Made by a program: the position numbers and the translations under genes. The notes below the pieces were generated by a model. That model worked only from the letters and a program-made list of their open reading frames with translations, was not told where the DNA came from and made no database searches. DNA of 64,000 nucleotides from Acidimicrobiia bacterium (lineage in GTDB: Bacteria > Actinomycetota > Acidimicrobiia > Acidimicrobiales > JANYDT01), in NCBI GenBank assembly GCA_031368215.1, contig JANLRD010000171.1, forward strand, positions 13,933-77,932, read 5' to 3'. Within the stretch, counting starts at the first letter, position 1; every line of letters starts with the position of its first letter. Positions 7,459 to 46,805 of the stretch are shown here, one piece after another.

Positions 7459-7459
7459 G

Positions 7460-13630: not shown

Positions 13631-14152
13631 TCAGACGCGGGTCGTGGTCGAACCGGCGGGGGAGTTCCGGAACATGTTCTCGGCGTCGAAGCCGATCCGA
13701 GTGTCGGGAACGATCTCGATCACGACACGACCGGGAGTATCGAGATGGTGGACGAAGGCCTTCTGCTGGTCGGTGCTTCCGGGCCGGACCTTCGCCGCGA
13801 GGGTCGGATAGAACCACGCCTTCGTGGCTTCGTCATCATGCACGATCGCGTTCCCTTTGTAGGTCACCGTCTGGCTGACGCCGATGTCCGTTCCCCGGCT
13901 CGAGACGGCGATCGCCACCCGTGGCCGAGCCTCGACCGCCGGGACACGCTTGCGCCGTCTGGTGCACGTGAGCCAGAACCGCCCATCATGGGCGACGAAG
14001 TTCATGATGACGCCGACCGGATCACCGTCCTTGGTCGACCACATGAAGCAGCACTCCGTCTGCGTGCCGAGGAGTCGCTGCTCACGTCGATCGTCGAGTG
14101 AGAACGTCGAGACGTCTTCATAGGAATCGGTGTAGGTCTCGTCGTCACTCAT
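13631..14152 (-). CDS. Pyridoxamine 5'-phosphate oxidase (PPOX)-like / F420-dependent-like small flavoprotein
   Basis: The C-terminal 173 aa of track ORF 13631..15229 start at MSDDETY. The remainder of that ORF is antisense to the Rieske gene. PPOX-like split-barrel pattern (GVIMNFVAHDGRFWLTC...). Confidence 0.6.
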   Translation of the reverse strand: MSDDETYTDSYEDVSTFSLDDRREQRLLGTQTECCFMWSTKDGDPVGVIMNFVAHDGRFWLTCTRRRKRVPAVEARPRVAIAVSSRGTDIGVSQTVTYKGNAIVHDDEATKAWFYPTLAAKVRPGSTDQQKAFVHHLDTPGRVVIEIVPDTRIGFDAENMFRNSPAGSTTTRV

Positions 14153-14227
14153 GAGCGATGAGTCTCCCCTGTCAACGGCTTCAGCGCCACGTCGGCAGTT
14201 CCTCTGCCGAGCGGCCACAATGCTTCC

Positions 14228-15253
14228 ATGAGTCCATCGCCCGGCAACGACCGCTGGTTCACGAACGAGCACCCGGCGCTGCTTCGGTGCTGGCACCCTG
14301 TCGCCCGAAGCGCCGACGTCGGCGAATCGCCCGTGGCAGTGGAACTCCTCGGAGAGCATTGGTGCGTGGTTCGGCTGAACGGACTGCTGACCGCTCTGCC
14401 GGACCGCTGCCCCCACCGCTTCTCGCCACTGTCGGCCGGCCGTGTCGTCGAGGGAACCCTCGAATGCGCTTACCACGGGTATCGCTTCGGACCCGATGGG
14501 CACTGTGTCGAGATCCCGGCGCAGTCCCCATCGCTTCCGATCCCGCCGCGTGCGCATTGTCAGCCGGCCCACGGCGTGTGCGATCACCTCGGCCTCGTGT
14601 GGGTCGCCATCGAAGCGCCCGTCGTCGATCTCCCCGAGGTTCCCGAGCATCACGACCCCACCTTCGTGCACTGCCCGCTTCCCCCGCTCGACTGGCACGC
14701 CAGCGCCGCCCAGATGACCGACAACTTCCTCGACCAGGGTCACTTCCCGTTCCTCCACCTCGCAACGTTCGGCGCAGTGGACGATCGCGTCGTTCCCGAC
14801 TACGAACTGGAGCGACGCGGTCTGGGGTTCACGGTTCGCCACACCCACAAGACCAAAGCACTGGCCGACTCCCACCCGGGCGCAGCGCAAACCCGCATCA
14901 TCGAGCGCGAAGACCTCTTCGTCTACACAGCGCCCCACCACGTGTATCTCCGGATCAACTACAAGTCGGAGAACGCGGTGCTCACGATCAGCTTCTGCCA
15001 CCAACCGGTGAACGAAACGACCACGCGACTCTTCTGCACCGACTACCGCAACGACATCGCCGACACGGCGAACGAACGGCAGCAGACTGCCGACTTCCAG
15101 ATGGCCGTGGCGGCGGAGGACAGGGCCCTCCTCGAGCGTGTTCACCGAAAGGGCGTTCCGCTCGACGTGACGGCCGAAGTTCACACGAAGGCGGACCGCA
15201 TCACCTTGGAGATGCGCCGAATCCTTCATGAACTCGTCACGCTCCCGACCTGA
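14228..15253 (+). CDS. Rieske [2Fe-2S] non-haem iron oxygenase (VanA/Ndm/PaO-like)
   Basis: Rieske ligands CPHRF-x16-CAYHGY; mononuclear-iron motif DNFLDQGHFPFLH. Confidence 0.85.
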   Translation: MSPSPGNDRWFTNEHPALLRCWHPVARSADVGESPVAVELLGEHWCVVRLNGLLTALPDRCPHRFSPLSAGRVVEGTLECAYHGYRFGPDGHCVEIPAQSPSLPIPPRAHCQPAHGVCDHLGLVWVAIEAPVVDLPEVPEHHDPTFVHCPLPPLDWHASAAQMTDNFLDQGHFPFLHLATFGAVDDRVVPDYELERRGLGFTVRHTHKTKALADSHPGAAQTRIIEREDLFVYTAPHHVYLRINYKSENAVLTISFCHQPVNETTTRLFCTDYRNDIADTANERQQTADFQMAVAAEDRALLERVHRKGVPLDVTAEVHTKADRITLEMRRILHELVTLPT

Positions 15254-15767
15254 GCAGCTCCGGCAGATCGGTACGCTCTTGTTCCGGACGCCAAGTTACG
15301 TATCAGCAGCCGAAGGCGTCGAGACGGCACCCGACCTCTGCGAGCTGTTCACCATGAATCGCCTTGGCGAACCCGGGCTCGCCTCGCGGGATGACCTCGG
15401 TGATTCCTTCGACCAGTGGTCGGTCCCGAACGTCTGGCCCGACCGTCCGAGCGACCTGCGCGAGATCTGGTTGGAGTACTACGCAGCAATGGAGTCGCTC
15501 GCCGTCGACCTGATGCGACTGTTCGCCATCGCCCTCGGCATCGACGAGCACTTCTTCGACGACAAGATCGACAACCACATCACGAACCTGTGCGCGAACC
15601 ACTACCCACCGGTCATTGCGGAAGCGTTGCCGGGACAGTACCGCAAGGGCCCTCACAGTGACTGGGGCAGCCTTACCGTGCTCTTCCAGGACGACACCGG
15701 CGGACTCGAGGTCCTCGACCGACGGACCGGCGACTGGATCGGAAAGATCCAGGCTGCCTACTCGTGA
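15228..15767 (+). pseudogene. Remnant of a 2OG-Fe(II) oxygenase (IPNS-like), truncated at both ends
   Basis: It contains the middle of the fold (NVWPDRP...FFDDK...NHYPP...GPHSDWGSLTVLFQDDTGGLEVLD...GDWI). It lacks the DIOX_N part, which would lie under the Rieske gene 3' end. It stops before the second His / RxS region. Confidence 0.5.
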
Positions 15768-15827: not shown

Positions 15828-16700
15828 TCAGTGGACGCCCCGGACGAAGGGAACGGCGAGCGACGCCGGGGTCCGGCTGGCCCGAGCACGAAGCACCAGG
15901 GCAGCCAGCGTCACCACGTACGGCAGCGCCAGAAACACCTCATACGGGATATCCGTCTGTGTTCCCTGCAGACGTAGCTGCGACGCGTCGCACAGCCCGA
16001 AGAGGAACGCGCCAGCGACCGCCATGCCCGGTCGCCAACCGGCGAACACGACCAACGCCAACGCCACCCAACCGCGTCCGGCGGTGACATCGCGGATGAA
16101 CAGCCCGAGCGGGCCACACGTCAGCGCGGCGCCGCCGAGCCCGGCCAGACCGCCACCGATGGTTGCTGCGATCCAGCGAAGCCGAACGACGCGGTACCCG
16201 AGCGCATCGGCCGCTTCCGGTGACTCGCCGGTGGCGGCCATCGCCAAACCGATGGTGGTGCGCTGGAAAAGGAACCACAGCGCGAACACACACACGAGCG
16301 TCATCGCCACGAGCGGAGGCATGCCGAGCCGATCGACCCGCGGCGGCTTCTGGCCGATGGAGTACTTCAGCTGGAACAGGTAGGTCGTGCCCGATGACGC
16401 GAGCAGCGTGAAGGCGATGCCGGTGACGACCTGATTGGCACGGATCGTCACGACCGCAAGCGCGAGCAGCGCGCCGAACCCACACCCGACCGAGGTCCCG
16501 GCCAGCAGACCGACCCAGGGCGAGCCGCTGACCTCGTTGGCCATGTATCCGGCGAAGGCTCCCGACAACATCATTCCTTCGAGACCGAGGTTCAAGACCC
16601 CGGCACGTTCCGAGATCAGTGCGCCGAGCGCGGCAAGCGCCACCGGGATCGAGAGACGGATCGCCGCTTCCAGGGTCGCTATCTTGAGCAGTACGTCCAT
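15828..16700 (-). CDS. ABC transporter permease (BPD_transp_2, BMP/nucleoside-type importer)
   Basis: Polytopic membrane protein, ...ERAGVLNLGLEGMMLSGAF... Start set at MDVLLKI, 1 nt after the upstream stop. Confidence 0.8.
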   Translation of the reverse strand: MDVLLKIATLEAAIRLSIPVALAALGALISERAGVLNLGLEGMMLSGAFAGYMANEVSGSPWVGLLAGTSVGCGFGALLALAVVTIRANQVVTGIAFTLLASSGTTYLFQLKYSIGQKPPRVDRLGMPPLVAMTLVCVFALWFLFQRTTIGLAMAATGESPEAADALGYRVVRLRWIAATIGGGLAGLGGAALTCGPLGLFIRDVTAGRGWVALALVVFAGWRPGMAVAGAFLFGLCDASQLRLQGTQTDIPYEVFLALPYVVTLAALVLRARASRTPASLAVPFVRGVH

Positions 16701-16701
16701 G

Positions 16702-17802
16702 TCAGCGCCCTTCTCTTCCCCGATTGGCAAGTGCGTCGCCGATCACGACGAACACGACGATGAGCGCAGTGATCACGCCGACAAGGGTCGACGGCACATT
16801 GAGGACCCGTTGGGTGGACTCAAAACCGATCGTGAGGCCGGCCAGCCCGAGGGCGGCGACCGCGACACCGATCGGATGGAGTCGCCCGACCATGGCCACG
16901 ATGATGGCTTCGAAACCAAATCCGACCGACGCCGCGGCGCCAAGGCGTCCGGTTGACCCAGCCGTTTCCACCATGCCGGCGAGTCCCGCCAACGCGCCCG
17001 CAATCACCATCACCAACAGCACGATCTTCTTCTTGCTGACCTCGTTGGCGTCGAGCGCGTTCGGATTGAAGCCCGTCGCAATGACCCGGAACCCCCCACG
17101 GTGGCGCGCCATGAAGACGGCCGCAATCGGCACGAGGACCATGGCGATGGCAAAACCGATATGGGTGTGCGTTCCGGGGAGTCTGGGGAGTTGCGCCGCC
17201 AATAGTGGGCGACTGTTCGGAACGAACGAGTCCGGATCACGGATCCCCGTCCGCACCGCCCACTGCAGAACCGAACCCGCCACATAGACGAGCATCAGGC
17301 TGGAGATGACCACGTTGGCCCCGAACCGGACCTCGAGCCAACCCGCGAACGCGCTCCAGGCAGCACCCGCCAGCGCGGCGACGAGGAGACCGGTGACGAC
17401 GAGCGGAAATCCGGGCCACGTGCGTATCCCGCCTGCGGTCACCCAAGCGGTGCCGGCGATGGCGCCGATCAGGTACTGACCCTCGCCCCCGATGGTGAAC
17501 ACCCGGGCCCGATAGGCAATGGAATAGCCCAGCCCGATGAGAATCAGCGGCGTTGCCGCCGTCGCGGTGTCGGAGAGCCCTCGCTTGCCGACGAACACCG
17601 CGCGAAGGACCTCCCGGTACGCCGAGAACGCGTTCGTGCCGTCGAAGGCGATGAGCACGCCGCCGACCACGAGGGCAGCAGCCACGGCCGCTAGAGGCAC
17701 AGCGATCTGCGAAACGACGCCACCCGAAGTTGCCCGACGGCCCACGCCGGCGATGAAGCCGCCGGGCGGCGTGCCCGGATGCTCGGCCGTCACGGTGCTC
17801 AT
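16702..17802 (-). CDS. ABC transporter permease (BPD_transp_2)
   Basis: Polytopic membrane protein, ...RVFTIGGEGQYLIGAIAG... ATGA overlap with the upstream ATPase gene. Confidence 0.8.
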   Translation of the reverse strand: MSTVTAEHPGTPPGGFIAGVGRRATSGGVVSQIAVPLAAVAAALVVGGVLIAFDGTNAFSAYREVLRAVFVGKRGLSDTATAATPLILIGLGYSIAYRARVFTIGGEGQYLIGAIAGTAWVTAGGIRTWPGFPLVVTGLLVAALAGAAWSAFAGWLEVRFGANVVISSLMLVYVAGSVLQWAVRTGIRDPDSFVPNSRPLLAAQLPRLPGTHTHIGFAIAMVLVPIAAVFMARHRGGFRVIATGFNPNALDANEVSKKKIVLLVMVIAGALAGLAGMVETAGSTGRLGAAASVGFGFEAIIVAMVGRLHPIGVAVAALGLAGLTIGFESTQRVLNVPSTLVGVITALIVVFVVIGDALANRGREGR

Positions 17803-19307
17803 ACGACCGTCACCTCGTGCGATTCCCCGGCCATCGCCAGTCCGATCGCCGCTCGGTCAAAGGGAGGGAAGAACGGCCCGAGCAGGCGTCCCCCGGCGAG
17901 AACGACGATCCGGTCCGCTACCGCGAGGAGTTCGTCGAGCTCGGCGCCGATCCAAAGCACGGCAGCACCCTCGTTGGCACACCGGACCAATCGGGCCGCA
18001 ACACTGTCAGCGGCGCCAGGGTCGAGGCCGCGCGTCGGGTAGCACGCAAGCACTGCTTTTGGTGTGCCGTCGAGTTCACGGGCGAGGACGAGCTTCTGGG
18101 CATTGCCGCCCGACAGCGAGGACGCTCTCGCGCCGGGGCCCGACGTGCGAACATCCCAGAGGGCCAACTCATCCACTCGGCCGGCGCGCCGCTTGGTCCG
18201 CGAACGCCGCCACCGCGGAACCCGGCCTAGGTCCAAGTTGTCGGAAAGGTCCATGGAGCCGACGAGACCGAACTGATAGCGGTCCGAAGGTATGTAGGCG
18301 AGGCCGCGCGTTCGACGGCTGCGTGGATTTCCCGGAATCAACGCGAGGCCATCGAGCTCGACTCGCCCCACTTTCATCGCGACGCGGGCCGACACGACGG
18401 CCTCGAGGTCGGACTGCCCGTTGCCGTCGACACCGGCGACGCCGACGATCTCTCCGCCCGCCACCGACAGGTCGATGCTCTTCAGCCTCCCGACCTCGAT
18501 TCCGGAAAGAACCAGGCGGCCGCTGACGCGGCTGCCTTCGCGTCCACCCCGATCGGTGAATGTGCCCGAACTCTCGTGACCGATCATCGCGCTCGCGAGG
18601 CTGGACCTCGTGTGGTTGGCGACCGGTTCGTCTCGAACGACCTCTCGGCCTTCGGCGAGAACCGTCACCCGATCAGCTCCGTCGAAGACTTCCGCCAAAC
18701 GGTGACTGATGAAGGCCAGAGCGCGTCCCTCGGCGGCCAAGGTCCGACACACCGAGAGAAGCGATTCCGCCTCCTGATCCGTGAGCACGGCCGTCGGCTC
18801 ATCGAGCAGCAGAACCCGAGCGTCGGCGTCGAGAGCGCGGAGCAGCTCCAAGCGCTGCTGTTCTCCTACGGAGAGGCGACCGGCCGGTACGTCGTCTCGA
18901 ACGGACAGCCCCGTGCGCTCGATCAACTGCGCCAGGCGCGCCGTTTCGCTTCGGCCGGGTCTGCGTCGCCAGCCATCGGGTCGGGCGAGCACCAAGTTCT
19001 CCGATGCGGTGAGGGTCGGCACCAGTGTGAAGTGCTGCTGCACCAGTGCGACGCCCATTGCCCTCATGCGTTTCGGGTCGAACCGTTCGACGAGCTCGCC
19101 ACCAACTCTGACCGTGCCTTCGTCGGGCCGATCGAGTCCGGCGAGGATCCGCACAAGTGTGGTCTTGCCGGCGCCGTTGGAGCCGAGCAGCGCATGGATC
19201 TCGCCGGCGCGCAAGGTGAGATCCACCCCGCGCAGCGCAAGGGTGTCTCCGAAACGCCGGTGAATTCCGCGCATCTCGACGAGCGACGTGCCGTTGGCTT
19301 CAACCAT
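17799..19307 (-). CDS. ABC transporter ATP-binding protein, duplicated ATPase (sugar/nucleoside-importer type)
   Basis: First Walker A GSNGAGKTT, signature LSVGEQQRLELLRAL, Walker B LLLDEPT, and a second degenerate ABC half (LSGGNAQKLVLAREL). Confidence 0.85.
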   Translation of the reverse strand: MVEANGTSLVEMRGIHRRFGDTLALRGVDLTLRAGEIHALLGSNGAGKTTLVRILAGLDRPDEGTVRVGGELVERFDPKRMRAMGVALVQQHFTLVPTLTASENLVLARPDGWRRRPGRSETARLAQLIERTGLSVRDDVPAGRLSVGEQQRLELLRALDADARVLLLDEPTAVLTDQEAESLLSVCRTLAAEGRALAFISHRLAEVFDGADRVTVLAEGREVVRDEPVANHTRSSLASAMIGHESSGTFTDRGGREGSRVSGRLVLSGIEVGRLKSIDLSVAGGEIVGVAGVDGNGQSDLEAVVSARVAMKVGRVELDGLALIPGNPRSRRTRGLAYIPSDRYQFGLVGSMDLSDNLDLGRVPRWRRSRTKRRAGRVDELALWDVRTSGPGARASSLSGGNAQKLVLARELDGTPKAVLACYPTRGLDPGAADSVAARLVRCANEGAAVLWIGAELDELLAVADRIVVLAGGRLLGPFFPPFDRAAIGLAMAGESHEVTVV

Positions 19308-19418: not shown

Positions 19419-20582
19419 TTACGCAGGCTTGGTGATGAACGGCACCTTGAAGGTGCCGGCCTTGATGTCGGCGAGCTTCGTTTCGTACAGCTTCATGGTG
19501 TCAGCCGGGATCTTCGACGCCCAATCGGGGCTGATGATCATGTCCATGCCGCCGTTGCCGAGGCTGACGGAGTAGTACTGCGCTTCCTTCTTGCCCGCCG
19601 CGACATCGGCGACCATCAAGGCGAAGACCTTGTCGAGGCGCCACGAGAACGATGACAGCACCGACTTGCCAACCTTCGACATGTCACCGACGTAGCCGGT
19701 GGAAACGTCGCCACCGTCGTTCGCCGCTTCGATCTGACCGAAGGTCGGGCCCTGGCCGCAGCCGACGAACATCGTCGCACCCGCTGACTTCTGGGCGAGA
19801 GCTGCCTCCTTCGCCTTCTGCACGTCGTACCAGTCACCAACAGCCACGAACGAACCGGTGGTCGCCGGGAGGACTTCCTTGGCACCGGCGAGGAAGGCTT
19901 CGTACATCGAGTAGCAGACCGGGATCTCGAACCCTCCGGCTCCGGCGACCTTGCCCTTCCCTTGAACGCCGGCGGCGAGAATTCCGGAGAGGTACGACGC
20001 CTCGAAGAACGGCTGGTCGTAGTCGCCCACGTTCGCCTTCACATCACCGAAGCCGCCGGCGTAGGAGAAAATCGTGTTGGGGAAGTCTGCCGCCACTTTC
20101 TTCACGTCGTCGCCGTAGTTGAACGAGTGCGCCACGATCGGGTTGAAACCGGCTTCGGCGAGCGCACGGAGAGCACGCTCGGCCTCGGCGCCCGGTGGCA
20201 CGTTTTCCTGGAGCTGGATCTCCGAGACAAGCCCGGCTTTCTTGAGCTCATTGGCGCCGTTGAAGGCCGCTTCGCCCCACGAGCCATCCGCCCATTCGGC
20301 CGAGTAGATCATGCCGAACTTCGGCAAGCCGGCGGCCGCGGGAGCAGCGGCCGATTCGGCGGCCGCGGCAGTTTCGACGGCAGCAGCAGTTTCGGTCGGC
20401 GCGGCCGTATCAGCAGCAGCCGCGGCAGTCTCGGCGGCGGCGGTCTCGGCGGCGGCAGTTTCGGCCGCGGCCGTGGTGTTGGAGCTCTTGTCACTCGAAC
20501 AGCCTGCGGCGATGAGGGAGAGCGACAGAAGGGCGCCGACAAGGAACTTTCGGCGGGAGCGGAGGAGTGGGGGCGTGGTCAT
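19419..20582 (-). CDS. BMP-family (PnrA/Med-like) ABC substrate-binding lipoprotein
   Basis: Signal peptide with lipobox LIAAGCSS, a long Ala/Glu/Thr linker, then a BMP-like body (...FNPIVAHSFNYGDDVKKVAADFPNTIFSYAGG...). Confidence 0.8.
   Translation of the reverse strand: MTTPPLLRSRRKFLVGALLSLSLIAAGCSSDKSSNTTAAAETAAAETAAAETAAAAADTAAPTETAAAVETAAAAESAAAPAAAGLPKFGMIYSAEWADGSWGEAAFNGANELKKAGLVSEIQLQENVPPGAEAERALRALAEAGFNPIVAHSFNYGDDVKKVAADFPNTIFSYAGGFGDVKANVGDYDQPFFEASYLSGILAAGVQGKGKVAGAGGFEIPVCYSMYEAFLAGAKEVLPATTGSFVAVGDWYDVQKAKEAALAQKSAGATMFVGCGQGPTFGQIEAANDGGDVSTGYVGDMSKVGKSVLSSFSWRLDKVFALMVADVAAGKKEAQYYSVSLGNGGMDMIISPDWASKIPADTMKLYETKLADIKAGTFKVPFITKPA
20421..20465. repeat. 15-bp tandem repeat x3 inside the lipoprotein linker (encodes TAAAE repeats)
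   Basis: cgcggcagtctcggc / ggcggcggtctcggc / ggcggcagtttcggc. The wider low-complexity tract spans about 20335-20480. Confidence 0.7.
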
Positions 20583-20696: not shown

Positions 20697-22484
20697 TTAC
20701 TCGACGTTCGCCGAGGTCCCGTACCGGACACCTCGCTCGATCAGCCAGCGCCGGTAGGCGAGGCTCGTCTGGTCGGCGCGTTGGTGCACCTCACGCGACG
20801 GCGAGAGGGGGAGTCGCACAGGACGCTGCGACTCGACGATGTCAACGTCCTGCTCGAAGATCAGCGCGCCGAACGCATTGAAGGCGGCGAGGTCGGCATC
20901 GGGGTTATAGGAAGTGGTGATCATCCACGCCCGGTTCGAACCCTCGGTCTCCGGGCTCACCGCGAGCAAAATCTCGAAACCGTCCCGCGCTCCCCCGTCG
21001 GCCTCACTTGGGATCTTCACGAGCCGCGCGGCGTAGGGATGCGACACACCGTAGGTGTACGTAACAATGCCGCCCTCGCCCCCGGATGGACCGGGTTGCG
21101 GCTGGAAGAACACGCAGTTCGTGGCCAACAACTCGCCGTCGACGACACGGACGGCGTAGTCGGACACCTCAGTTTCGGGAACCCGGCCGAGATACCCCTC
21201 ATGGACGAAGGGGAAGTGCGCCATGTCGAGAAAGTTCTCCACGATGCGAGGGCCTGACGAGCGCACCCGCTTCGACGCACAGATGGTCGTGAGGCCCGGG
21301 TGGGCTTCGAAGGCGTCGTAAAAGGGGAGATTGCGGGGCTCGTCGCCGATGCACATCCACCACAGACCGAACGCCTCCCGGACCCGGACGGCGGGCAAAC
21401 CGGCAGCAGCAGGAGGGATCCCGTCCGGATGCGCCGGCTGGTGGACGCAGCGTCCATCGGCTCCGAACTGCCAGCCGTGATAGCTGCACCGCAGCCGATC
21501 TCCGTCGAATGACCCGAGACTCAGCTGGGCTCCTCGGTGCGGACAGGTGTCCCGGGTGACGAGAACACCGCCATCGTTTCCGCACAACAGCACGTAACGC
21601 TCGTCGAGCAGCGTGAACGGATACATCGATCCGGGCGTCACTTCCGCGGCGGTCGCGACCGGGAACCATTCATTCACGATCGGGTCGGGCGCCACCGAGT
21701 GCTCGGTGTTCTGCGTTGCTTCCGCCGGTCGGGAGATGCTCACCGGACGGCCACCGGAACCCGATGCGACCACGGTTGTTCCTCTCGAGATGCTGACCGA
21801 GGTCCCTTCCGCGCCCGACGACGCCGTCGTCGTCGATTTCGCGGGGATGTCCGGTGCAGCCGGATAGATACCCGGCATGACGGTGAATCCGGGGGTCCGC
21901 TTGAAACGGTCGGTCCATCGGCGAAGCGCCGGGTAGTCGACCAGGCTGATGCCACCCTGCTCGGCGAGCATCACGTCCGGGAAGAGCGCGAGATCGGCAA
22001 TGGTCGGATGGGGGGCTCTGGCAACCCAGTCGCGGCTCTCCTGTTCCTGGAACCACAGGTGCTCGTCGAGGACGCGGAACAACCGATGAGCCCCGGAGCG
22101 CACCGCGTCGATGTCGAACGGGTAGCCGAGCGTGTCGTGAAGCCGGGCCGCGGACGCGGTGTTCGTCGTGCCCTCGGCGAAGAGCATCCACGACGCCACC
22201 TCGCCCAGGACCTCCGGGTCATGCGTCGGGTACCACTGCCCGCTCGCGTCGTACTTCGCCGACAGGTACACGAGGATCGCGTGGGCATCGCGCAGGATGT
22301 AACCGTCGTCGTCGATCACCGGGATGTGTCCGAGCGGGTTGATCTCGGCGAAGGCTTCGCCCTTGTGTTCCCAACCGGGGAAGAAATCGATCAGGACCGA
22401 CTCGAAGGACACGCCGAGGATGTTCATCAGCAGCCGCTGCTTGTAGCAGTTGACCGAGAGTTCGTAGTCGTAGAGCTTGATCAT
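20697..22484 (-). CDS. Glutathione S-transferase domain fused to a complete Rieske non-haem iron oxygenase
   Basis: The GST part runs MIKLYDYELSVNCYKQRLLMN...INPLGHIPVIDDDGYILRDAHAILVYL... A Ser/Thr/Gly linker follows, then Rieske CPHRG-x16-CSYHGW and the iron motif ENFLDMAHFPFVH. It is a single ORF with no internal stop. Start at 22484 with GAGGTGA 7 nt upstream. Confidence 0.75.
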   Translation of the reverse strand: MIKLYDYELSVNCYKQRLLMNILGVSFESVLIDFFPGWEHKGEAFAEINPLGHIPVIDDDGYILRDAHAILVYLSAKYDASGQWYPTHDPEVLGEVASWMLFAEGTTNTASAARLHDTLGYPFDIDAVRSGAHRLFRVLDEHLWFQEQESRDWVARAPHPTIADLALFPDVMLAEQGGISLVDYPALRRWTDRFKRTPGFTVMPGIYPAAPDIPAKSTTTASSGAEGTSVSISRGTTVVASGSGGRPVSISRPAEATQNTEHSVAPDPIVNEWFPVATAAEVTPGSMYPFTLLDERYVLLCGNDGGVLVTRDTCPHRGAQLSLGSFDGDRLRCSYHGWQFGADGRCVHQPAHPDGIPPAAAGLPAVRVREAFGLWWMCIGDEPRNLPFYDAFEAHPGLTTICASKRVRSSGPRIVENFLDMAHFPFVHEGYLGRVPETEVSDYAVRVVDGELLATNCVFFQPQPGPSGGEGGIVTYTYGVSHPYAARLVKIPSEADGGARDGFEILLAVSPETEGSNRAWMITTSYNPDADLAAFNAFGALIFEQDVDIVESQRPVRLPLSPSREVHQRADQTSLAYRRWLIERGVRYGTSANVE

Positions 22485-22501
22485 CTCGTCACCTCGGTAC
22501 A

Positions 22502-24304
22502 CTAAATGTCGAGTACGAGTCGAGGGGTTCGCGACCGCGACACACAGATGGTCATGCGGTTTCCTGCGGCTCGTTCGGAATCGTTGAGGTACACGTCTTG
22601 ATGGTCGGGTTCGCCGGCCAGGACCGCTACGACGCAGGTACCGCACGCGCCCTGCTCACATGAGGAGGGCACGGCGACCCCGTTGTTCCGGAGCACCTCC
22701 ATGATCGACGAACCCGGCGGAACGGCCAGGGTGAGGGCCGAGCGGGCGAGCTCTACCTCGAATGCGGTCGACATGTCGAGTGGCGTGGTGTTCTTGAAGT
22801 ACTCGAAATGGACCGCCTGATCGGGCCAGCCCGCCGCTGCAGCGGTGGCGCGCGCGGCGTCGAGCATCGGGCCGGGTCCGCAGATGTAGACATTCTCGCC
22901 CTCGCCCGGACTTTCGAGCAGAGTTCGCAGTGCTTCGCCGGTGGCCGCCGGTGACAATCCGAGATGGAACGTCACCCGATCGCCGAACGCCTCCAGGACC
23001 TCGGCAAACGCAACGTGATCCGGCGACTGGGCGAAGTAGTGCAACGCGAAGTCGAGCGAGCTCGCCTGCAGGGCCTGCGCCATGGACAGCAGAGGTGTCA
23101 CGCCGATCCCTCCGGCGATCAGCACCGTTCTGAACGAGTCGCGCCGCAAAGGGAAGTTGTTGCGCGGTTGGGAGATCGCGAGGACGTCGCCTTCGCGCAC
23201 CAGGTCATGCAGGCACGACGATCCGCCACGCGAAGCGGCTTCGAGCTTGACGCCGATGACGTAGCGGCCCTGCTCACCCGGTCCGTTGACGAGTGAGTAC
23301 TGGCGGATCAAACCGTTCGGCAGGTGCACATCGATGTGGGCCCCCGGCTGGAAGGTCGGGAGTTGGCCCTCGACGGGATCGAACTCGAACGAGACGATGC
23401 CCTCGCCCACATCTCGCTTGCGGGCCACGACCACCCGCACGAGTCCGCCGACTCGCCCCTCGACGGCGGTCTCCGGCATTGTCGAGAGTTCGAGCGACAC
23501 CTGGCCGATCCTTGCCACCATCGGCTCCGGTGTCGGTCGCTTCTTGGCCTCGGCCTCGCGGGCATCACGGAGCCGGTTGATCCTGGATGCGTGATAGCGG
23601 AGGACCGCCAGTTCCGAGCCCGGCTCGGGTGACCGGCTCAGCACACTGCGGATCACCGACCTGGCCGAGTCGACCGGCTGCACGAAGAACACGATTGTGG
23701 ACTTCGCCTCTGGAGCTTCGCCGAGCTGGATCGAGGTGAGTTCGATCCAACCGTCGCCCCGGTTCGTGACCGAGACCAGCGCGTCGGCGTGTTCAGCCGT
23801 CCCGTGCCCGGCGTCGGGGACCTCCGTCGACGGGACGAAGTGGTATGAAGCCAACGCGTCGAGCACGACGTGCGGCTCGACGTTCGCCGGCACGGAACGC
23901 AGAGCGAACGGATCGCCTGTGTCGAGACTCGCGATCACCGGGACATCACCTTGCGGTGCCTCCCCCGTCCACACGAACCCGTAGCGCTCGACCATCGGGA
24001 ACGTGACGTTGCAGATCGTGCGCGCCGGCGCGTCTGCGGGATGGGCGGGGATGTAGGTGCAGCCGGCCGATCGGTTGGCGTAGCGCCACCCGTGATACTG
24101 GCAGCGCAGTTCCCGTCCTTCGTTGTGGCCGAGCGTGAGGCGGACGCCGCGGTGGAGGCAGCGGTTCTCCCACACGTTCACGTACCCATCGTCGGCACGC
24201 CAGAGGGCGAGTTCACGGCCGAGGAGCAGACCGTGGAAGACGTGTCGCGGCGGCAGGTCGTCGCTCCGGGCCACCGGATACCAGTTGGCCGTCAGATCTT
24301 CCAT
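22502..24304 (-). CDS. Oxygenase reductase with extra N-terminal Rieske domain (Rieske + FNR-like flavin/NAD module + plant-type [2Fe-2S] ferredoxin; NdmD-like architecture)
   Basis: CLHRG-x16-CQYHGW; RQYSL and LIAGGIGVTPLLSM; C-terminal CEQGACGTC...ICVSR. Confidence 0.8.
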   Translation of the reverse strand: MEDLTANWYPVARSDDLPPRHVFHGLLLGRELALWRADDGYVNVWENRCLHRGVRLTLGHNEGRELRCQYHGWRYANRSAGCTYIPAHPADAPARTICNVTFPMVERYGFVWTGEAPQGDVPVIASLDTGDPFALRSVPANVEPHVVLDALASYHFVPSTEVPDAGHGTAEHADALVSVTNRGDGWIELTSIQLGEAPEAKSTIVFFVQPVDSARSVIRSVLSRSPEPGSELAVLRYHASRINRLRDAREAEAKKRPTPEPMVARIGQVSLELSTMPETAVEGRVGGLVRVVVARKRDVGEGIVSFEFDPVEGQLPTFQPGAHIDVHLPNGLIRQYSLVNGPGEQGRYVIGVKLEAASRGGSSCLHDLVREGDVLAISQPRNNFPLRRDSFRTVLIAGGIGVTPLLSMAQALQASSLDFALHYFAQSPDHVAFAEVLEAFGDRVTFHLGLSPAATGEALRTLLESPGEGENVYICGPGPMLDAARATAAAAGWPDQAVHFEYFKNTTPLDMSTAFEVELARSALTLAVPPGSSIMEVLRNNGVAVPSSCEQGACGTCVVAVLAGEPDHQDVYLNDSERAAGNRMTICVSRSRTPRLVLDI

Positions 24305-24334
24305 GGCGGTTTCGCTCTCGACGCTTCGTGGTGA

Positions 24335-25249
24335 CTACGCGGCAGGAATGACGCCGTAGGTCAGACCCTTGTCGGAGAGCCAGCGCCGGTAGTGGATCGC
24401 GCTCTTGTCGGCGCGGATCGGCGTTTCGGCACGTGGGTCGAGGGGGAGCCGCTTCGGATACTGGCTTTCGAGGATCGTCTTGTCCTGCCCGAAGATCAGC
24501 TGCTGGAAATGCCGAAGGGTGTTGTCGGTGCTCACGTCATCGACCATGGCGAGGAAGTTGTGGGCCCGGATGCGTTCCTCGGTCATCGGCTGGTTGAACA
24601 GCGCGATCACGTCCATGCGGCTCGGGTCGGCGTGCACCGACTTGTAGAGCATCACGCAGTACGGGTGGGGCACCCGATACGTGTAGTTGGTGACCTGGCC
24701 ACCGGCGGCGCTCGCCGCGGCAACCGGTTGGTAGAACTTGCAACCCGTTGCCAGCACCTGGGCCTCGGTCGTCTCGACGTTGTACTCGACCACTTCGGTG
24801 CGCGGCTCGATGCCGAGAAGTCCGGTGTGCACGTACGGGAAGTGGCCCATGTCGAGGAAATTCTCCACCGCACGCGGTGCGGAGACGCTGACCATCAGGC
24901 TCCCGCCGTTGAGGATCCGACGGTCGGCTTCGTCGCACTCCGGGATGTCGAAGATCTCGTGGTCCGGATTGCCGAGCGTGGTCCAGAGATACCCGAACTT
25001 GACTCGTGTCGGGAGTGGATCGGTCACCGTCGTGGGGTCCATCTCCGCACCTGCGGCCGAGCCGACCAGACCGGAGGGATCGGCCTCACTCGCCCAGACG
25101 AATGGTCGGCCAACGCTGTCGCGGGTGTAGCTGATCGCCTGGCCGAGGAGCAACGTGCGGTGAAGCCGGAACGGGACAACTTCATCAAGCGCGCTCAGCG
25201 GGTGCCATTCGTGGAGGACCACAGGGTCGACGAGTACAGGCGAACACAC
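24335..25249 (-). CDS. Rieske-oxygenase catalytic-domain protein lacking the Rieske cluster ligands (NdmC-like architecture)
   Basis: Iron motif [13 protein letters not shown] and C-terminal [13 protein letters not shown]...IHYRRWL. There is no CxH...CxxH in the N-terminal 100 aa. GTG start. Confidence 0.75.
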
Positions 25250-29726: not shown

Positions 29727-30914
29727 GTGCGCGCACGAACCAAGTGGACACGAAGCGGGCGCACCGGGACGTTCGCGGTGATCGTCGCGCCCCTCTTGCT
29801 TCTCGCCGCTGCGATGCCGTTCCCCGATCAAGGCGTGTTCGCCTCGAGAACGCCAACTCGGTCCCGCCGGCTGCCAGCGTCGTTCCGAGCCGAAGGGCGC
29901 CGAACGCGACTGCCGAACCTGGCGCTGATGTTGAGCGACGAACGGACGACCCCGCCGCAGGCCCCAAGCACGATCGTCACTGCATGGCCTCGCGAACTCG
30001 CCACGACGGCGTCGCCTTCCACGTCATCGCCTCGAGCGATGACGCCCGCGTCTGGCGAGCTGTTCTTCGCCTCGGACCGCTCGGGTAACTTCGAGGTCTA
30101 CGCAATGCGTCCCGATGGTTCGTCGGTGCGTCGCCTCACGACTGACAGTGCTTCGGACGCTTGGTGGCCCCGTCCATCTCCGGACCGAACTCGCGTGCTG
30201 TTCTACCGGACTCCCACCGGAGTACATGACCTGGACTACAGCCGGACGCGCCTGTGGGTCATGAACTCGGATGGAACGGGCCAGCGCGAACTGCGGGCAG
30301 TCGGTTCGGACGGCTGGGACCTGCAGGGGCATGCCGAGTGGTCTCCTGATGGGGAAAGCCTCGTCATGTTCGGCGGAGATCGATCGAACCCACAGATCTT
30401 CATCACTGACTCCTCGGGCCGATCGCCCCGTCAGATCACCCAACGACCGGGTACAAATCTTGATCCGTCGTTCAGCCCAGACGGCAGCGCGGTGGCCTTC
30501 GTTGGATGTCCGCAGGCGACGTGTTATCCCCTCGACTACGAGATCTATGTGTTGTCGCTGGCCACGTTGTCAGTGGAGCGGATCACGGATGACCGACTTC
30601 GAGATCACGACCCCGCGTTCTCGCCCGACGGTCGCACCATGGCTTGGCTCACGCAATTCGAGTCCGCTGGCGAGAAAGGACCGGGTGTGTGGGACGTCCG
30701 CCTGGCCTCGCTGCATTCGGGCGATGCACCGCGCCGGCTCTTCGGGGGTCGGGACATCACCAGCAGACCCGTGTGGGGAACGAACGATTCGCTGTTTGTG
30801 CACCGGCTCGTGGTCGGCGTCGATCCAAACTTTCAGATCTATCGAGTCAATATCGACGGAACCTCGAGTAGGCGCCTCACCGACTCGCGAAGTTCCAACG
30901 AGTACCCCGGCTGA
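29727..30914 (+). CDS. TolB-like PD40/WD40 beta-propeller protein, secreted or membrane-anchored
   Basis: Repeated PD40 units: LFFASDRSGNFEVYAMRPDGSSVRRLT, PSPDRTRVLFY, WSPDGESLVMF, FSPDGSAVAFV, FSPDGRTMAWL. Confidence 0.75.
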   Translation: MRARTKWTRSGRTGTFAVIVAPLLLLAAAMPFPDQGVFASRTPTRSRRLPASFRAEGRRTRLPNLALMLSDERTTPPQAPSTIVTAWPRELATTASPSTSSPRAMTPASGELFFASDRSGNFEVYAMRPDGSSVRRLTTDSASDAWWPRPSPDRTRVLFYRTPTGVHDLDYSRTRLWVMNSDGTGQRELRAVGSDGWDLQGHAEWSPDGESLVMFGGDRSNPQIFITDSSGRSPRQITQRPGTNLDPSFSPDGSAVAFVGCPQATCYPLDYEIYVLSLATLSVERITDDRLRDHDPAFSPDGRTMAWLTQFESAGEKGPGVWDVRLASLHSGDAPRRLFGGRDITSRPVWGTNDSLFVHRLVVGVDPNFQIYRVNIDGTSSRRLTDSRSSNEYPG

Positions 30915-30930
30915 CCCACGCCTTCTGGTA

Positions 30931-31950
30931 TCACGCCGACGGATACTCCATGACATCGGGGCCCTGCGGGGCCAGTCGGCGCAGGCCCGAGCCATCTGCA
31001 GCGACAGAGAATATTTGGAACTTCACCGCACCCGGCGCGAGGCGATGAAAGTATATACGCTTACCATCTTTTGACCACTCGGGTCGGCTGTTGATGGCGC
31101 GATCCTTGATGAGGCGGCGCACATCGGCGCCTTTGATGTCGGACACTCTGATGTCCCACACCGGGGGCTTGCCCGAGATCTCTGTCAGCCAAGCGAACCG
31201 GTTGCCGTCCGGGGAGTAGTACGGGTCATGGTCACGGAGCCGATCGTTCGTCACCCGTGTGACCTTGCCCCCGTTGATCGGGATCGTCAGCACCTCGTAG
31301 TCGTGGGGCTTGCAGTACGACTTCGGGCAACCTATGAATACTATGCGGCGTCCGTCCGGTGAATAGCTCGGGTCGAGATTCGTTCCTCCGCGGCGAGACA
31401 CGTTCATTGGGTTCTGGCCGGTCGCCGATGTCACGTAGATCTGCGGACTGAGGCGGCTGCCGCCGAACATGACAAGGTTCGCGCCATCTGGGGACCATTC
31501 GGCGTGCCCCTGCTGCCGCCAACCGTTCGCATGTCGGCCGCGAAGCAAAGTGATGGATGAACCGTCTGCGGCCATCACCCACAACGTCGCTTTGGTGTAG
31601 TCGCGGTCGTGGGAACCTCTTGGAGTCCTATAGAGGAGGATGTGTCGCCGATCTGGCGAAATTCGACCCCACCACGAATCGAAACGCGCATCGTCAGTGA
31701 GCTGACGTACCTGAGTTCCATCGGCCGATGTCGAGTAGACCTCGAAGTTGCCAGAACGGTCGGAGTCGAACACCAGATACCCCGTTGGGACGGTGGTGCG
31801 AGATCGCGGCAGGGCAGTTATCGATGGATCGGGACCGGACACCGGCCATAAACCCATCAGCGTCGCAAACCCCAGCCCGGCCAGAACCGTCAGAAGCCCG
31901 ATCACCACCAAGACAGACAGGATGACCCTGCGCTTTCCCCGCTTACGCAC
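30931..31950 (-). CDS. TolB-like PD40 beta-propeller protein with N-terminal TM anchor (paralogue of 29727)
   Basis: KRRVILSVLVVIGLLTVLAGLGFA, then LVFDSDRSGNFEVYSTSADGTQVRQLT, ISPDRRHILLY, WSPDGANLVMF, YSPDGRRIVFI, YSPDGNRFAWL. Confidence 0.75.
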   Translation of the reverse strand: MRKRGKRRVILSVLVVIGLLTVLAGLGFATLMGLWPVSGPDPSITALPRSRTTVPTGYLVFDSDRSGNFEVYSTSADGTQVRQLTDDARFDSWWGRISPDRRHILLYRTPRGSHDRDYTKATLWVMAADGSSITLLRGRHANGWRQQGHAEWSPDGANLVMFGGSRLSPQIYVTSATGQNPMNVSRRGGTNLDPSYSPDGRRIVFIGCPKSYCKPHDYEVLTIPINGGKVTRVTNDRLRDHDPYYSPDGNRFAWLTEISGKPPVWDIRVSDIKGADVRRLIKDRAINSRPEWSKDGKRIYFHRLAPGAVKFQIFSVAADGSGLRRLAPQGPDVMEYPSA

Positions 31951-32542
31951 CGAGCAGCTCCGCCTGGGGTGCCACGACGGTTGACCCGGCTGCGATCGAA
32001 CGCATCAGCAGAGCGTTCGCACCAACCCGGCAGCCATCCCCGAGAGTTATCGGCCCGAACACTTTCGCTCCGTCGAAGAGCGTGCAGTTCGAACCGATCA
32101 CCGGGAAGCCATCACGATCGGGGTCTCGAAAGCCGACGGTACCCACCGACACGCTCTTGAAGACCTTGACGTTTTCTCCGATGACCACGCCTGCTCCGAT
32201 CGCGATGCCCATTGGATGGGCCACGACGAACCCGGGACCAATCTGTGCCTGCGGGTAGATCTCCGCGCTGAACAGCACTACTCCGGTGAGTAACAAGAGT
32301 CGAGCGACGGGGAACCAGCCGCGCAAGTGTGCGGCGTGTGCGGCTCGGAAGGTCACGACAGAAAGGAATCCGGCCTGAGTAAGAACGTCGAATGTGCGGC
32401 GCAGCCCTCGATTCTTGACGTGGTCGATTCCGATTAGGGCCTCAAAATCGGCGCGCAGGAGTTTGCGAACGGGACTGTCGTGGCGCAATCCTGCGTACTT
32501 CCGATCAGACCCGTCACCGCTGCTTTTCTCGCTTGTTGTCAC
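31943..32542 (-). CDS. Hexapeptide-repeat O-acetyltransferase (serine acetyltransferase/EpsC-like)
   Basis: LbH repeats: HPMGIAIGAGVVIGENVKVFKSVSVG...VIGSNCTLFDGAKVFGPITLGDGCRVGANALL. Confidence 0.75.
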   Translation of the reverse strand: MTTSEKSSGDGSDRKYAGLRHDSPVRKLLRADFEALIGIDHVKNRGLRRTFDVLTQAGFLSVVTFRAAHAAHLRGWFPVARLLLLTGVVLFSAEIYPQAQIGPGFVVAHPMGIAIGAGVVIGENVKVFKSVSVGTVGFRDPDRDGFPVIGSNCTLFDGAKVFGPITLGDGCRVGANALLMRSIAAGSTVVAPQAELLGA

Positions 32543-33678
32543 GGTTTCATTCTCCTACTCGGCTCCGTCAGCGTTTCCTCGAACGCGCGCAGCGCAGCTT
32601 GGCCCACGCGCGCCGCAGAGAACGACGCAGCCTGCAATGGTCCGGCCGCACGTAGATCGGCACACAGCGATGGGTCACGCACAATCCGGTCCATTCCGTT
32701 CGTGATGGCGAGCGTGTCGAGCGGATTAACGAACAGCGCGGCGTCACCAAGGACTTCGGGGAGCGACGTGCGGTCGGACGCCAGCACCGGGGTACCCAAG
32801 GACATCGCCTCAAGTGGCGGTAGTCCGAATCCCTCAAAGAGCGACGGGTACGCCAGGAGAACCGCTTCACGCATCAACCAGAGGCGGACGGCTTCGTCGA
32901 CCCTGCCCACATTCAGCACGCTGCCTACCGGGGCCGACGAGACCTTTTGCTGCTCTTCGCCGCCCTGCCACCAACGAGCGCCGGCCAGCACAAGTGTCAA
33001 CTCGCCCATCCCGTCACGCGCGCGCAGATCGAGGAACGCATCGATCAACCGGCCGACGTTCTTGCGAGGATGAAGGTTCCCGAGATACAGGACGAAGGGG
33101 GCGCGTACTCCCACTTCTTCAGCCCACCTCCGTGCGTGTCCTTCCGTGGCGTCGTCGAGCGCCACCGGATCGGCGACGCGGTTCGGGACGACCTTGACAC
33201 GCGCCGGGTCGAGCCCGTAGGACGCAATGAGGTCCGATCGCGAGTATTCGCTGGGCGTCAGCACCACACCGGCCCCGCGGGCCTGTCGCGGGACCAACAA
33301 GTTCAGCCGGCGACGCGCCCCGGATGGGTACATCTCGGGGTGGTGCAGAAACGAGAGGTCACCAATGACGACAGCCGTCGGGATGGACGAACGAACGACC
33401 ACGTGCGTCACCGTCACTACGAGGTCGGCCCGTTGCGACCGCAACGCAAGAGGCAGGTCGACCGCAAAATGTCGCAACCCCCGCCTCCGGGGCACGTCGA
33501 TGAGTGGGAAGTCCGCCCTGTCCCTGACAGCGCAGGGCACGTTGGTGCCGGGCGCCGCCAAGATCGGGAACTCGTGGGACTGGTTTTTGATCGCGAGGCC
33601 TTCGAGCAGACCGGTCATCCACGTCTCATCGCCGCCAATTCCGGACTCGAGGGGCGCCCCGTCGATCAGGACCCTCAC
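32539..33678 (-). CDS. Glycosyltransferase family 4 (GT-B)
   Basis: EGFGLPPLEAMSLGTPVLASDRTSLPEV (the EX7E region). GTG start in a GTGA overlap with the upstream stop. Confidence 0.8.
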   Translation of the reverse strand: MRVLIDGAPLESGIGGDETWMTGLLEGLAIKNQSHEFPILAAPGTNVPCAVRDRADFPLIDVPRRRGLRHFAVDLPLALRSQRADLVVTVTHVVVRSSIPTAVVIGDLSFLHHPEMYPSGARRRLNLLVPRQARGAGVVLTPSEYSRSDLIASYGLDPARVKVVPNRVADPVALDDATEGHARRWAEEVGVRAPFVLYLGNLHPRKNVGRLIDAFLDLRARDGMGELTLVLAGARWWQGGEEQQKVSSAPVGSVLNVGRVDEAVRLWLMREAVLLAYPSLFEGFGLPPLEAMSLGTPVLASDRTSLPEVLGDAALFVNPLDTLAITNGMDRIVRDPSLCADLRAAGPLQAASFSAARVGQAALRAFEETLTEPSRRMKP

Positions 33679-34763: not shown

Positions 34764-34795
34764 TTCTGGTCTCCTGGATTCGACAAAGGGAAGGA

Positions 34796-36738: not shown

Positions 36739-36740
36739 CG
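36721..36740. repeat. 10-bp tandem duplication (ccagtcaacg x2) at the Wzy-PD40 / GT2 gene junction
   Basis: Read directly from the sequence. One copy supplies the VDW codons of the upstream gene. The other supplies its TGA stop and, in another frame, the VDW codons of the GT2 ORF. Confidence 0.8.
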
Positions 36741-40438: not shown

Positions 40439-40450
40439 TTCGAACCGGAC

Positions 40451-44564: not shown

Positions 44565-44576
44565 GGGGGCCGTTCT

Positions 44577-46480: not shown

Positions 46481-46805
46481 TACTCCTCCTTCCCTTCAAA
46501 CACCGGCGTCCGTTCAAAGACCTTCGCCTTCCGGGCGCAAGCCTTGGTCGCTCGGTCGCTCAACCCTAAGGATGCGGATTCGGCGAGGCAATAGCCGAAA
46601 GAGGTATTGCCTTCACGAAGCAGTAGCCAAAACGTGTCTTTTCCCACGCTCTACGGAAGGAAAGAATGGCGCGGCGTAGCGAATGACTTTGGACACTTAT
46701 TCGGATCAGCCTTTGGCGGTCAAGCGAGGTTGGTGTGGCACAGATATTGCGGTGCCACTGCCATCGTGACACCGAATCTAGGGTGGACCTAGAGCCCAGT
46801 CAGAA

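Follow-up and report, generated by a model that had tools for sequence, protein, structure and literature searches.

A 64,000-nucleotide (nt) stretch of DNA from an Acidimicrobiia bacterium (assembly GCA_031368215.1, contig JANLRD010000171.1, positions 13,933-77,932 of the forward strand), referred to below as the window, encodes what we read, with a probability of about 0.7, as a "split" Rieske monooxygenase of the NdmCDE type, housed in a seven-gene operon that also provides for import of the substrate. The NdmCDE-type architecture and its electron path are the firmest component of this reading and can be regarded as very probable. Demethylation as the underlying chemistry is likely, and a purine-like substrate seems somewhat better than an even bet; any specific compound, such as 7-methylxanthine or 7-methylguanine, would be an improbable guess. 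The distinguishing features of the locus are an actinobacterial NdmCDE-type system, a rare fusion of a glutathione S-transferase (GST) with an oxygenase, an importer in the operon, and an extra HpxD-like oxygenase.

The core of the system consists of three minus-strand genes, denoted P1 (24335-25249), P2 (22502-24304) and P3 (20697-22484). An earlier reading of the same DNA, the original prediction, had reported these three open reading frames (ORFs), and re-reading of the window recovered all of them at the same coordinates; 30 nt separate P1 from P2, and 17 nt separate P2 from P3. The unit exceeds those three genes: the operon continues into an ATP-binding cassette (ABC) importer of the Bmp type, and a further complete Rieske oxygenase (RO), RO3, is convergent with the operon end. 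The features discussed below are the following.

24335..25249, minus strand: P1, NdmC-type oxygenase subunit, 304 amino acids (aa), with a mononuclear-iron catalytic domain and a cluster-less remnant of the Rieske beta-core at the N-terminus (Pfam, NdmC match, tree)
24827..24865, minus strand: P1 iron-binding motif, 13 residues, with His136 and His141 (family invariants, motif audit)
24479-24493, minus strand: P1 Asp-ligand motif FGQDK (motif audit)
22502..24304, minus strand: P2, NdmD-type reductase, 600 aa, in the order Rieske, degenerate catalytic domain, flavin mononucleotide (FMN), NAD, plant-type [2Fe-2S] (Pfam, 2pia, NdmD)
24038..24286, minus strand: P2 Rieske [2Fe-2S] domain, with ligands CLH...CQYH at 24092-24160 (Pfam, motif audit)
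23525..24007, minus strand: P2 "spacer" (residues ~100-260), a predicted vestigial oxygenase catalytic domain without the His-x4-His iron motif (hhalign, AlphaFold 2 (AF2), Foldseek)
22535..23431, minus strand: P2 reductase half, with the RQYS FMN site (23294-23305), the GGIGVTP NAD site (23093-23113) and the Cx4CxxC...C ferredoxin (22544-22660)
21870..22484, minus strand: P3 N-terminal NdmE-like GST domain, residues 1-205 (NdmE match, GST_N and GST_C)
21681..21869, minus strand: P3 linker, low-complexity and S/T/A/G-rich, residues ~206-268 (comparison of fused relatives)
20697..21680, minus strand: P3 C-terminal complete Rieske oxygenase, the fused RO (Pfam, motifs, SxtT/GxtA and NdmA matches)
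Sites of the fused RO, minus strand: Rieske CPH...CSYH, 21477-21545; iron motif ENFLDMAHFPFVH, 21201-21239; Asp motif (FEQDV), 20844-20858
19419..20582, minus strand: Bmp/PnrA-family substrate-binding lipoprotein (SBP) of the ABC importer (Pfam Bmp, E=4e-27)
17799-19307, minus strand: double ATPase of the ABC importer (Pfam)
16702-17802 and 15828-16730, minus strand: two permeases of the ABC importer (Pfam)
14228..15253, plus strand: RO3, third complete Rieske/VanA_C oxygenase, 341 aa (Pfam Rieske and VanA_C)
15279..15740, plus strand: remnant of a 2-oxoglutarate (2OG)-Fe(II) oxygenase gene, residues 95-248 of 340 (intact copy in close relatives)

We treat P1 through the second permease as a single operon because the gaps are short (114 and 111 nt downstream of the core) or give way to overlaps, and because a terminator scan found no minus-strand terminator-like site within it; the three sites that it reported are all on the plus strand and are fewer than expected from shuffled sequence. 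A promoter scan returned nothing, and an Rfam scan of 14-26 kb yielded no riboswitch or other credible RNA, all matches falling far under the gathering scores. Altogether, the locus contains one Rieske-less oxygenase, two complete Rieske oxygenases, one Rieske-bearing reductase and one GST, a list of parts that equals NdmC, NdmA/B, NdmD and NdmE, drawn from different lineages.

The defining features of NdmCDE were taken from a review (PMC4408171), and a genuine ndm cluster for comparison was sought with NdmA residues 34-342, rebuilt from a Protein Data Bank (PDB) alignment, as the query. Such a cluster was found on plasmid NZ_CP143525 of Pseudomonas putida MT178 (locus L085; related loci are cited by their L numbers throughout), where NdmA is 91% identical to the crystallized CBB5 protein and the annotated order is ndmA, ndmB, NCS2 permease, ndmC (284 aa), ndmD (588 aa), ndmE (222 aa), fghA and a class III alcohol dehydrogenase. 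P1 is 42% identical to NdmC over the full length (E=1e-85), P2 is 37% identical to NdmD end to end, spacer included (E=3e-136), and residues 1-222 of P3 match NdmE at 51% identity (E=8e-87), in the same C-D-E order. The metal and cofactor motifs also agree with the Ndm proteins, both in what is kept and in what is missing. The NdmCDE match put forward in the original prediction is thus sustained, and the closest characterized relatives are the GST-dependent Ndm proteins rather than oxygenases that do without a GST. The ndmABCDE genes of L085 lie beside integrase genes on the 577-kb plasmid pTmex-577K and are annotated there with generic product names only.

P1 matches the Pfam VanA_C domain alone (E=2.5e-20), with no Pfam match to a Rieske domain, and a motif audit found neither CxH nor CxxH anywhere in the protein, in agreement with the earlier description of an iron motif without Rieske ligands. 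In an alignment of 22 P1 relatives, H136, H141 and D256 are invariant, and none of the members has Rieske ligands. Synteny and motif counts were made on 80 related loci, collected by tblastn and ORF clustering; the Rieske motif is absent from 111 of the 114 P1-family copies in this set, the three exceptions being GST-RO fusions. A missed upstream Rieske exon or a frameshift was considered and ruled out by the alignment and the motif audit, and because a divergent phosphoglucomutase gene begins about 100 nt upstream of P1. In a neighbor-joining tree of catalytic domains, a distance tree without support values, P1, its second paralogue P1' and NdmC form one Rieske-less clade. No NCBIfam model matches P1, and its best solved-structure matches are SxtT and GxtA (PDB 6wn3, 6wnc). 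The structure predicted from the 22-sequence alignment is poor, with a mean predicted local distance difference test (pLDDT) score of 54, although strands in the N-terminal part are confident.

P2 combines a Rieske domain (residues 7-89, E=2.7e-18) with FAD_binding_6, NAD_binding_1 and a C-terminal Fer2 domain (E=6e-15) and retains the CLH...CQYH, RQYS, GGIGVTP and Cx4CxxC...C motifs; its Rieske ligands are invariant across 35 family members, and residues 286-600 match phthalate dioxygenase reductase (PDR; 2pia, E=3e-67). The domain composition given in the original prediction is therefore upheld, but the "spacer" of about 160 aa that it placed after the Rieske domain appears instead to be a folded, degenerate oxygenase catalytic domain. 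When the family profiles of P2 and P1 were compared with hhalign, residues 6-215 of P2 aligned with residues 13-180 of P1 (probability 93.5%, E=2e-7); the alignment runs well beyond the Rieske domain and sets the P2 segment FFVQPVDS opposite FYQPVAA of P1. The AF2 model of P2 has pLDDT of 85-94 for residues ~100-260, which form a four-stranded sheet followed by a long helix. In Foldseek searches, the N-terminal half of this model aligns over 276-327 columns with whole SxtT/GxtA alpha-subunits of 311-329 residues (E~1e-14); for the C-terminal half, the match is phthalate dioxygenase reductase (E=1e-29). The family consensus of the spacer lacks the His-x4-His iron motif. Because of the profile match, the modeled fold, the Foldseek match and the missing motif, we read the N-terminal half of P2 as a degenerate alpha-subunit whose Rieske domain is still live but whose catalytic domain is dead; P1 shows the opposite combination.

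P3 (595 aa) was described in the original prediction as a GST joined to a full Rieske oxygenase, and the Pfam assignments, GST_N and GST_C (residues 1-200), Rieske (272-353, E=3.7e-21) and VanA_C (412-581, E=1.4e-18), agree with this, as do the intact motifs of the oxygenase half and a reading frame free of internal stops. Canonical GSTs bind glutathione via a Glu-Ser pair; the NdmE-like family has Asp-Ala where those enzymes hold Glu-Ser. Many positions, including S10, N12, C13, Y14, K15, P55 and D66, are at least 95% identical in 71 sequences of this family, and a structural role has been proposed for NdmE (PMC4408171).

The fusion is in frame and without a stop in four genomes, those of the window, L001 (577 aa), L003 (575 aa) and L004 (604 aa), and the linkers of the three relatives are rich in S, T, A, G and R and vary in length and sequence. 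GST, Rieske and VanA_C domains occur together in only six protein clusters among 5.8 billion (P0121-P0126; 575-604 aa, 75-86% identical); the oxygenase half otherwise has only free-standing relatives, of about 335 aa, and an exhaustive HMMER search of 1.84 billion representatives gave no independent GST-oxygenase fusion among the best 150 matches. An unfused relative (L086, GCA_009886115.1, ~70% identity) has the gene order P1, P2, GST, Rieske oxygenase, Bmp, ATPase and two permeases, and the stop codon of its 229-aa GST overlaps the start codon of its 368-aa Rieske oxygenase (ATGA). Judging from these comparisons, the fusion is a real and recent product of stop-codon loss between two overlapping, translationally coupled genes, confined to one small clade, and the P3 linker derives from the GST tail and the N-terminal extension of the oxygenase.

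The fused RO is best matched in the PDB by SxtT/GxtA (E=2e-48), followed by NdmA (E=1e-31). Its sequence identity is 28-29% with NdmA/B, 33% with HpxD and 32-40% with the catalytic domains of P1 and NdmC, and in the distance tree it branches as Rieske-bearing sister to the entire Rieske-less clade of NdmC, P1' and P1; an FxxLIFxQD helix is common to it and NdmC/P1. RO3, which keeps its place in L086 and L089, is also 28-29% identical to NdmA/B; its best characterized relative is HpxD (34%, E=2e-47), an identity too low for an orthology call, and it has no dedicated reductase gene beside it. Given these low identities and the separate clades, neither oxygenase is an orthologue of NdmA or NdmB. 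The NdmA/B-like function assigned to the fused oxygenase in the original prediction is accordingly not borne out as orthology; the protein is a complete Rieske oxygenase of the same family. Orthologues of the fused RO elsewhere are often solitary, with no NdmCDE-like genes nearby (for example, L087).

The importer comprises the Bmp-domain SBP, the double ATPase and two BPD_transp_2 permeases (Pfam), an order that is kept in relatives, and this four-gene set also lies after the oxygenase genes in L001, L004, L086 and L089. The closest solved relatives of the SBP are AtzT (6pi5, E=2.5e-27), which binds guanine with a dissociation constant of 110 nM (PMC6834077), and a Brucella Bmp protein (3s99, E=8e-23), in which adenine is modeled in the binding site. 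The N-terminal part of the SBP (20300-20480, minus strand) has a lipobox-like LIAAGCSS followed by a long alanine-rich (AAETA)n tether that precedes the Bmp domain, and weak Rfam matches in this interval are artefacts of composition.

P2 holds the full electron path, namely the NAD(P)H site, FMN, the plant-type [2Fe-2S] and the Rieske [2Fe-2S], and P1 holds only the 2-His-1-carboxylate site. In canonical alpha3 oxygenases, the iron of each subunit receives its electrons from the Rieske cluster of the adjacent subunit. The pseudo-alpha half of P2 probably sits against P1 as one alpha subunit does against the next, so that the Rieske cluster of P2 would feed the iron of P1. The GST domain may serve as a scaffold, as proposed for NdmE, and through the fusion this reductase complex would have another active site tethered to it. 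In the pathway that we propose, the Bmp-type transporter would import a methylated purine-like N-heterocycle, P1, and probably the fused RO, would take off N-methyl groups as formaldehyde, RO3 would demethylate or hydroxylate the ring, and the product would pass to purine salvage or catabolism.

Demethylation is the likely chemistry because genes for formaldehyde oxidation adjoin the module in related loci. S-(hydroxymethyl)glutathione dehydrogenase (TIGR02818, above the equivalog cut-off) is encoded after the GST gene in 12 of the 80 loci, and the cluster of Ensifer sp. ENS07 adds S-formylglutathione hydrolase, Gfa, a complete Rieske oxygenase, a reductase and a Bmp SBP; these formaldehyde genes mirror frmA and fghA of the Pseudomonas ndm cluster. 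A purine-like substrate is suggested by the linkage to a Bmp importer, the purine-base ligands of the relatives of its SBP, the NdmC-like pocket of P1 and the relatives of the oxygenases. At seven positions that contact caffeine in NdmA (bioRxiv 10.1101/2021.12.17.472166), P1 has F, F, Y, I, Q, I, F and NdmC has F, F, Y, L, Q, I, F, so that six of the seven are equal and one change is conservative. The characterized relatives of all three oxygenases (NdmA/B/C, HpxD and SxtT/GxtA) act on purines or a purine-derived alkaloid.

Several observations weigh against this reading, and some of them favor a system of the same architecture with a non-purine substrate, for instance a methylated pyridine or pyrimidine, a B6-like or flavin-like heterocycle, or a methoxy-aromatic compound, taken up via the Bmp transporter, an alternative that we rate as unlikely but worth weighing. 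Actinomycetota typically use mycothiol rather than glutathione. The P1/P2 heteromer is something that we infer, with a poor model of P1 (pLDDT 54). Two of the pocket positions, F168 and F174, lie inside the conserved iron motif and may say little on substrate, and as P1 is only 42% identical to NdmC, its substrate may differ. The Pfam catalytic domain is of the vanillate O-demethylase type; Bmp-family binding proteins also take non-purine ligands, and the NCBIfam search of the SBP gave a weak match, of 83 bits where the cut-off is 400, to a putative B6 binding protein. Genes for formaldehyde detoxification or purine catabolism are absent from the window, neighborhood clustering found no recurrent purine-catabolic enzyme beside the system in the 80 loci, and no paper in the library searched gives a substrate or biochemistry for non-caffeine NdmCDE homologues. 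The residues by which AtzT contacts its ligand (Tyr45, Ser97/Phe98, Glu165, Trp194, Asn218 and Asn220) were compared in an alignment of ~30% identity: the SBP keeps both stacking aromatics (Tyr45 and Trp194, each as Trp) and the Ser-Phe element but has Val, Cys and Gln for the hydrogen-bonding Glu165, Asn218 and Asn220, so recognition of the ligand edge would differ. The ligand may then be a planar heterocycle about as large as a purine but with another edge. The retained aromatics, the guanine and adenine ligands of the nearest solved SBPs, the near-identity of the P1 and NdmC pockets and the purine-related substrates of the oxygenase relatives speak against a non-purine substrate.

The reactions of the two complete oxygenases, the fused RO and RO3, might also differ from demethylation, and it is conceivable, if doubtful, that both enzymes hydroxylate the ring as HpxD does, in which case P1, P2 and the GST would convert a methylpurine to xanthine, and the fused RO or RO3 would oxidize xanthine to urate. 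RO3 has HpxD as its best match, the fused RO is slightly nearer to HpxD (33%) than to NdmA (29%), and SxtT and GxtA, its best PDB matches, are hydroxylases. However, identities of 33-34% cannot fix the type of reaction, the fused RO is sister to the demethylase clade of NdmC and P1 and has the same FxxLIFxQD helix, and no uricase or allantoin-pathway genes lie nearby. Far less credit is due to the notion that P1 is a non-catalytic regulatory or structural paralogue and that catalysis occurs only in the complete Rieske oxygenases. P1 does lack a Rieske cluster, and orphan P1 genes with no P2 or GST nearby occur in L006, L008, L012 and L014, but the iron ligands and the motifs around them do not vary within the family, its homologue NdmC is active with NdmD and NdmE (PMC4408171), and most of the loci lack any complete Rieske oxygenase, leaving this explanation very improbable. 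An assembly or sequencing artefact, or a meaningless recent frameshift, as the origin of the GST-oxygenase fusion is largely refuted, even though the linker is of low complexity and poorly conserved and the fusion is limited to one narrow clade: the same fusion recurs in six distinct protein clusters from different sources and remains in frame in L001, L003, L004 and the window despite different linker lengths, and in the unfused relative the two genes already overlap. We retain the NdmCDE-type monooxygenase, with a catalytic P1 and a genuine fusion, as the preferred reading.

The P1 family is large, with 2198 protein clusters at E<=1e-5, and a scan of species-representative genomes with P1 gave more than 557 loci, mainly in Rhizobiales and Acidimicrobiia. 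The nearest relatives of the window are Acidimicrobiia metagenome-assembled genomes (83-96% identity), and farther ones (55-61%) come from Devosia, Mesorhizobium, Aminobacter, Rhizobium, Hoeflea, Sinorhizobium and Rhodospirillales. No exact match to P2 came up in the contig index. P1 is present in all 80 loci of the synteny set, P2 in 72 and the GST in 66-69, and the three co-occur in 66-72; a Bmp-type SBP with ATPase and permeases accompanies them in 37-39 loci, in Actinomycetota and Rhizobiales alike, and a GntR/FCD regulator in 26. Complete Rieske oxygenases are absent from most of these loci. The original prediction knew of no description of this configuration, which stands for the fusion and the actinobacterial context and fails for NdmCDE-like clusters beyond caffeine degraders: these were known in 2013, in about 18 organisms, mainly Sinorhizobium and Mesorhizobium (Summers et al. 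2013, as summarized in PMC4408171).

P1' lies directly upstream of P1 in 27 of the 80 loci, all but one of them proteobacterial. The tandem P1' and P1, ~48% identical to each other, share one Rieske-reductase and one GST (for example, L081, 1394-2251, and L084, 11074-11940), and at the position equivalent to NdmA N282, P1' has Met, and P1 and NdmC have Gln. Long ORFs in L040 and L058 that resemble P1'-P1 fusions were rejected as out-of-frame upstream extensions. The orphan P1 homologues of Acidimicrobiia (L006, L008, L012 and L014; ~60% identity) have no P2-type reductase or GST within 10 kb, and their hosts include "Candidatus Aldehydirespirator".

NdmCDE has been treated as unique among Rieske oxygenases, and the structure of the complex was still unsolved in 2026 (PMC13237722). 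The distribution outlined above indicates that the module is not peculiar to caffeine degraders: hundreds of bacteria from soil, plant-associated and aquatic settings carry it, usually beside a Bmp-type importer. The fusion, a natural Rosetta stone, points to joint action of the GST scaffold and a conventional Rieske oxygenase within a single assembly, and the degenerate oxygenase subunit within the NdmD-type reductase suggests a route for electrons from the split cluster to the iron site. In practical terms, these proteins are candidates for regioselective N-demethylation of purine-like compounds. A bolder and rather improbable extension is that P1, P2 and the GST, with the Bmp importer, constitute a general, unrecognized pathway for scavenging N-methylated purines, built around a pseudo-alpha3 core of two "half-dead" subunits. 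Such a pathway could draw on nucleic-acid turnover or plants, converting, for example, 7-methylguanine or 7-methylxanthine to xanthine, with the module, at 55-65% identity, present in more than 550 species from Acidimicrobiia to Rhizobiales; in that case, the fusion would demonstrate a role of NdmE-like GSTs in docking conventional Rieske oxygenases to one shared reductase hub. No Rieske 7-methylguanine demethylase came to light in a literature search.

Some additional features of the window deserve mention. The 2OG-Fe(II) oxygenase remnant is 98.7% identical to residues 95-248 of a 340-residue relative; the intact gene lies between the last permease and RO3 in L089 and L001, and in the window both of its ends were lost by two deletions of ~250 and ~310 bp. 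A minus-strand ORF that overlaps RO3 (13631-15229) is unlikely to be genuine over its full length; given a PNPOx_N-like match (E=1.7e-7) in the C-terminal part, a shorter flavin/F420-type gene may sit at about 13631-14150 on the minus strand. Farther away, a polysaccharide-biosynthesis island (30900-46500), with a GC content of ~0.61 against 0.65, encodes GT4 glycosyltransferases, a flippase and a 1237-aa protein (36725-40438, minus strand) that joins an O-antigen-ligase (Wzy_C) domain to PD40 beta-propeller repeats. At the other side, an ABC ATPase with a C-terminal cyclic nucleotide monophosphate (cNMP) domain (7439-8449, plus strand) adjoins a 729-aa patatin-like phospholipase of the neuropathy target esterase type, also with a cNMP domain (8453-10642, plus strand).

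Among known systems, the closest is NdmCDE of P. putida CBB5, which converts 7-methylxanthine to xanthine and formaldehyde and in which NdmC is catalytically active together with NdmD and NdmE (PMC4408171). The Rieske-less VanA-type oxygenase, the Rieske-bearing reductase and the GST-like protein are common to both systems, whereas the host here belongs to Acidimicrobiia, the GST and a complete Rieske oxygenase form one protein, a Bmp-type ABC importer stands in place of the NCS2 permease, and the window holds no NdmA/B orthologues and neither frmA nor fghA. By sequence comparison, therefore, the locus, with no NdmA or NdmB orthologue, is not classed as a caffeine pathway. NdmA and NdmB themselves, the N1- and N3-methylxanthine demethylases (6ick, 6icl), belong to the same VanA-type alpha3 family, with the same iron and Rieske motifs and a conserved aromatic pocket (equivalents of F168, F174 and F223), yet fall into separate clades. 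The ndmCDE-like clusters of Sinorhizobium, Mesorhizobium, Devosia and other genera contain an orthologous P1/P2/GST module, 55-65% identical to the window proteins, and often lie beside a Bmp ABC importer and a GntR regulator; unlike in the window, P1' is usually found in place of a complete Rieske oxygenase, the GST is always free-standing, and the transporter is divergently transcribed.

The molybdenum-independent xanthine hydroxylase HpxD/HpxE resembles RO3 and the fused RO in being VanA-type and acting on a purine, but it hydroxylates rather than demethylates and relies on a plain PDR-type reductase, with no GST. Among solved structures, SxtT and GxtA come closest to P1, to the fused RO and to the P2 N-terminal half; in contrast to P1 and P2, these biosynthetic saxitoxin hydroxylases of cyanobacteria carry both metal centers on one chain. 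Finally, AtzT and the Brucella Bmp protein have the stacking Tyr/Trp pair and the Ser-Phe element in common with the SBP (PMC6834077) and differ from it at Glu165, Asn218 and Asn220.

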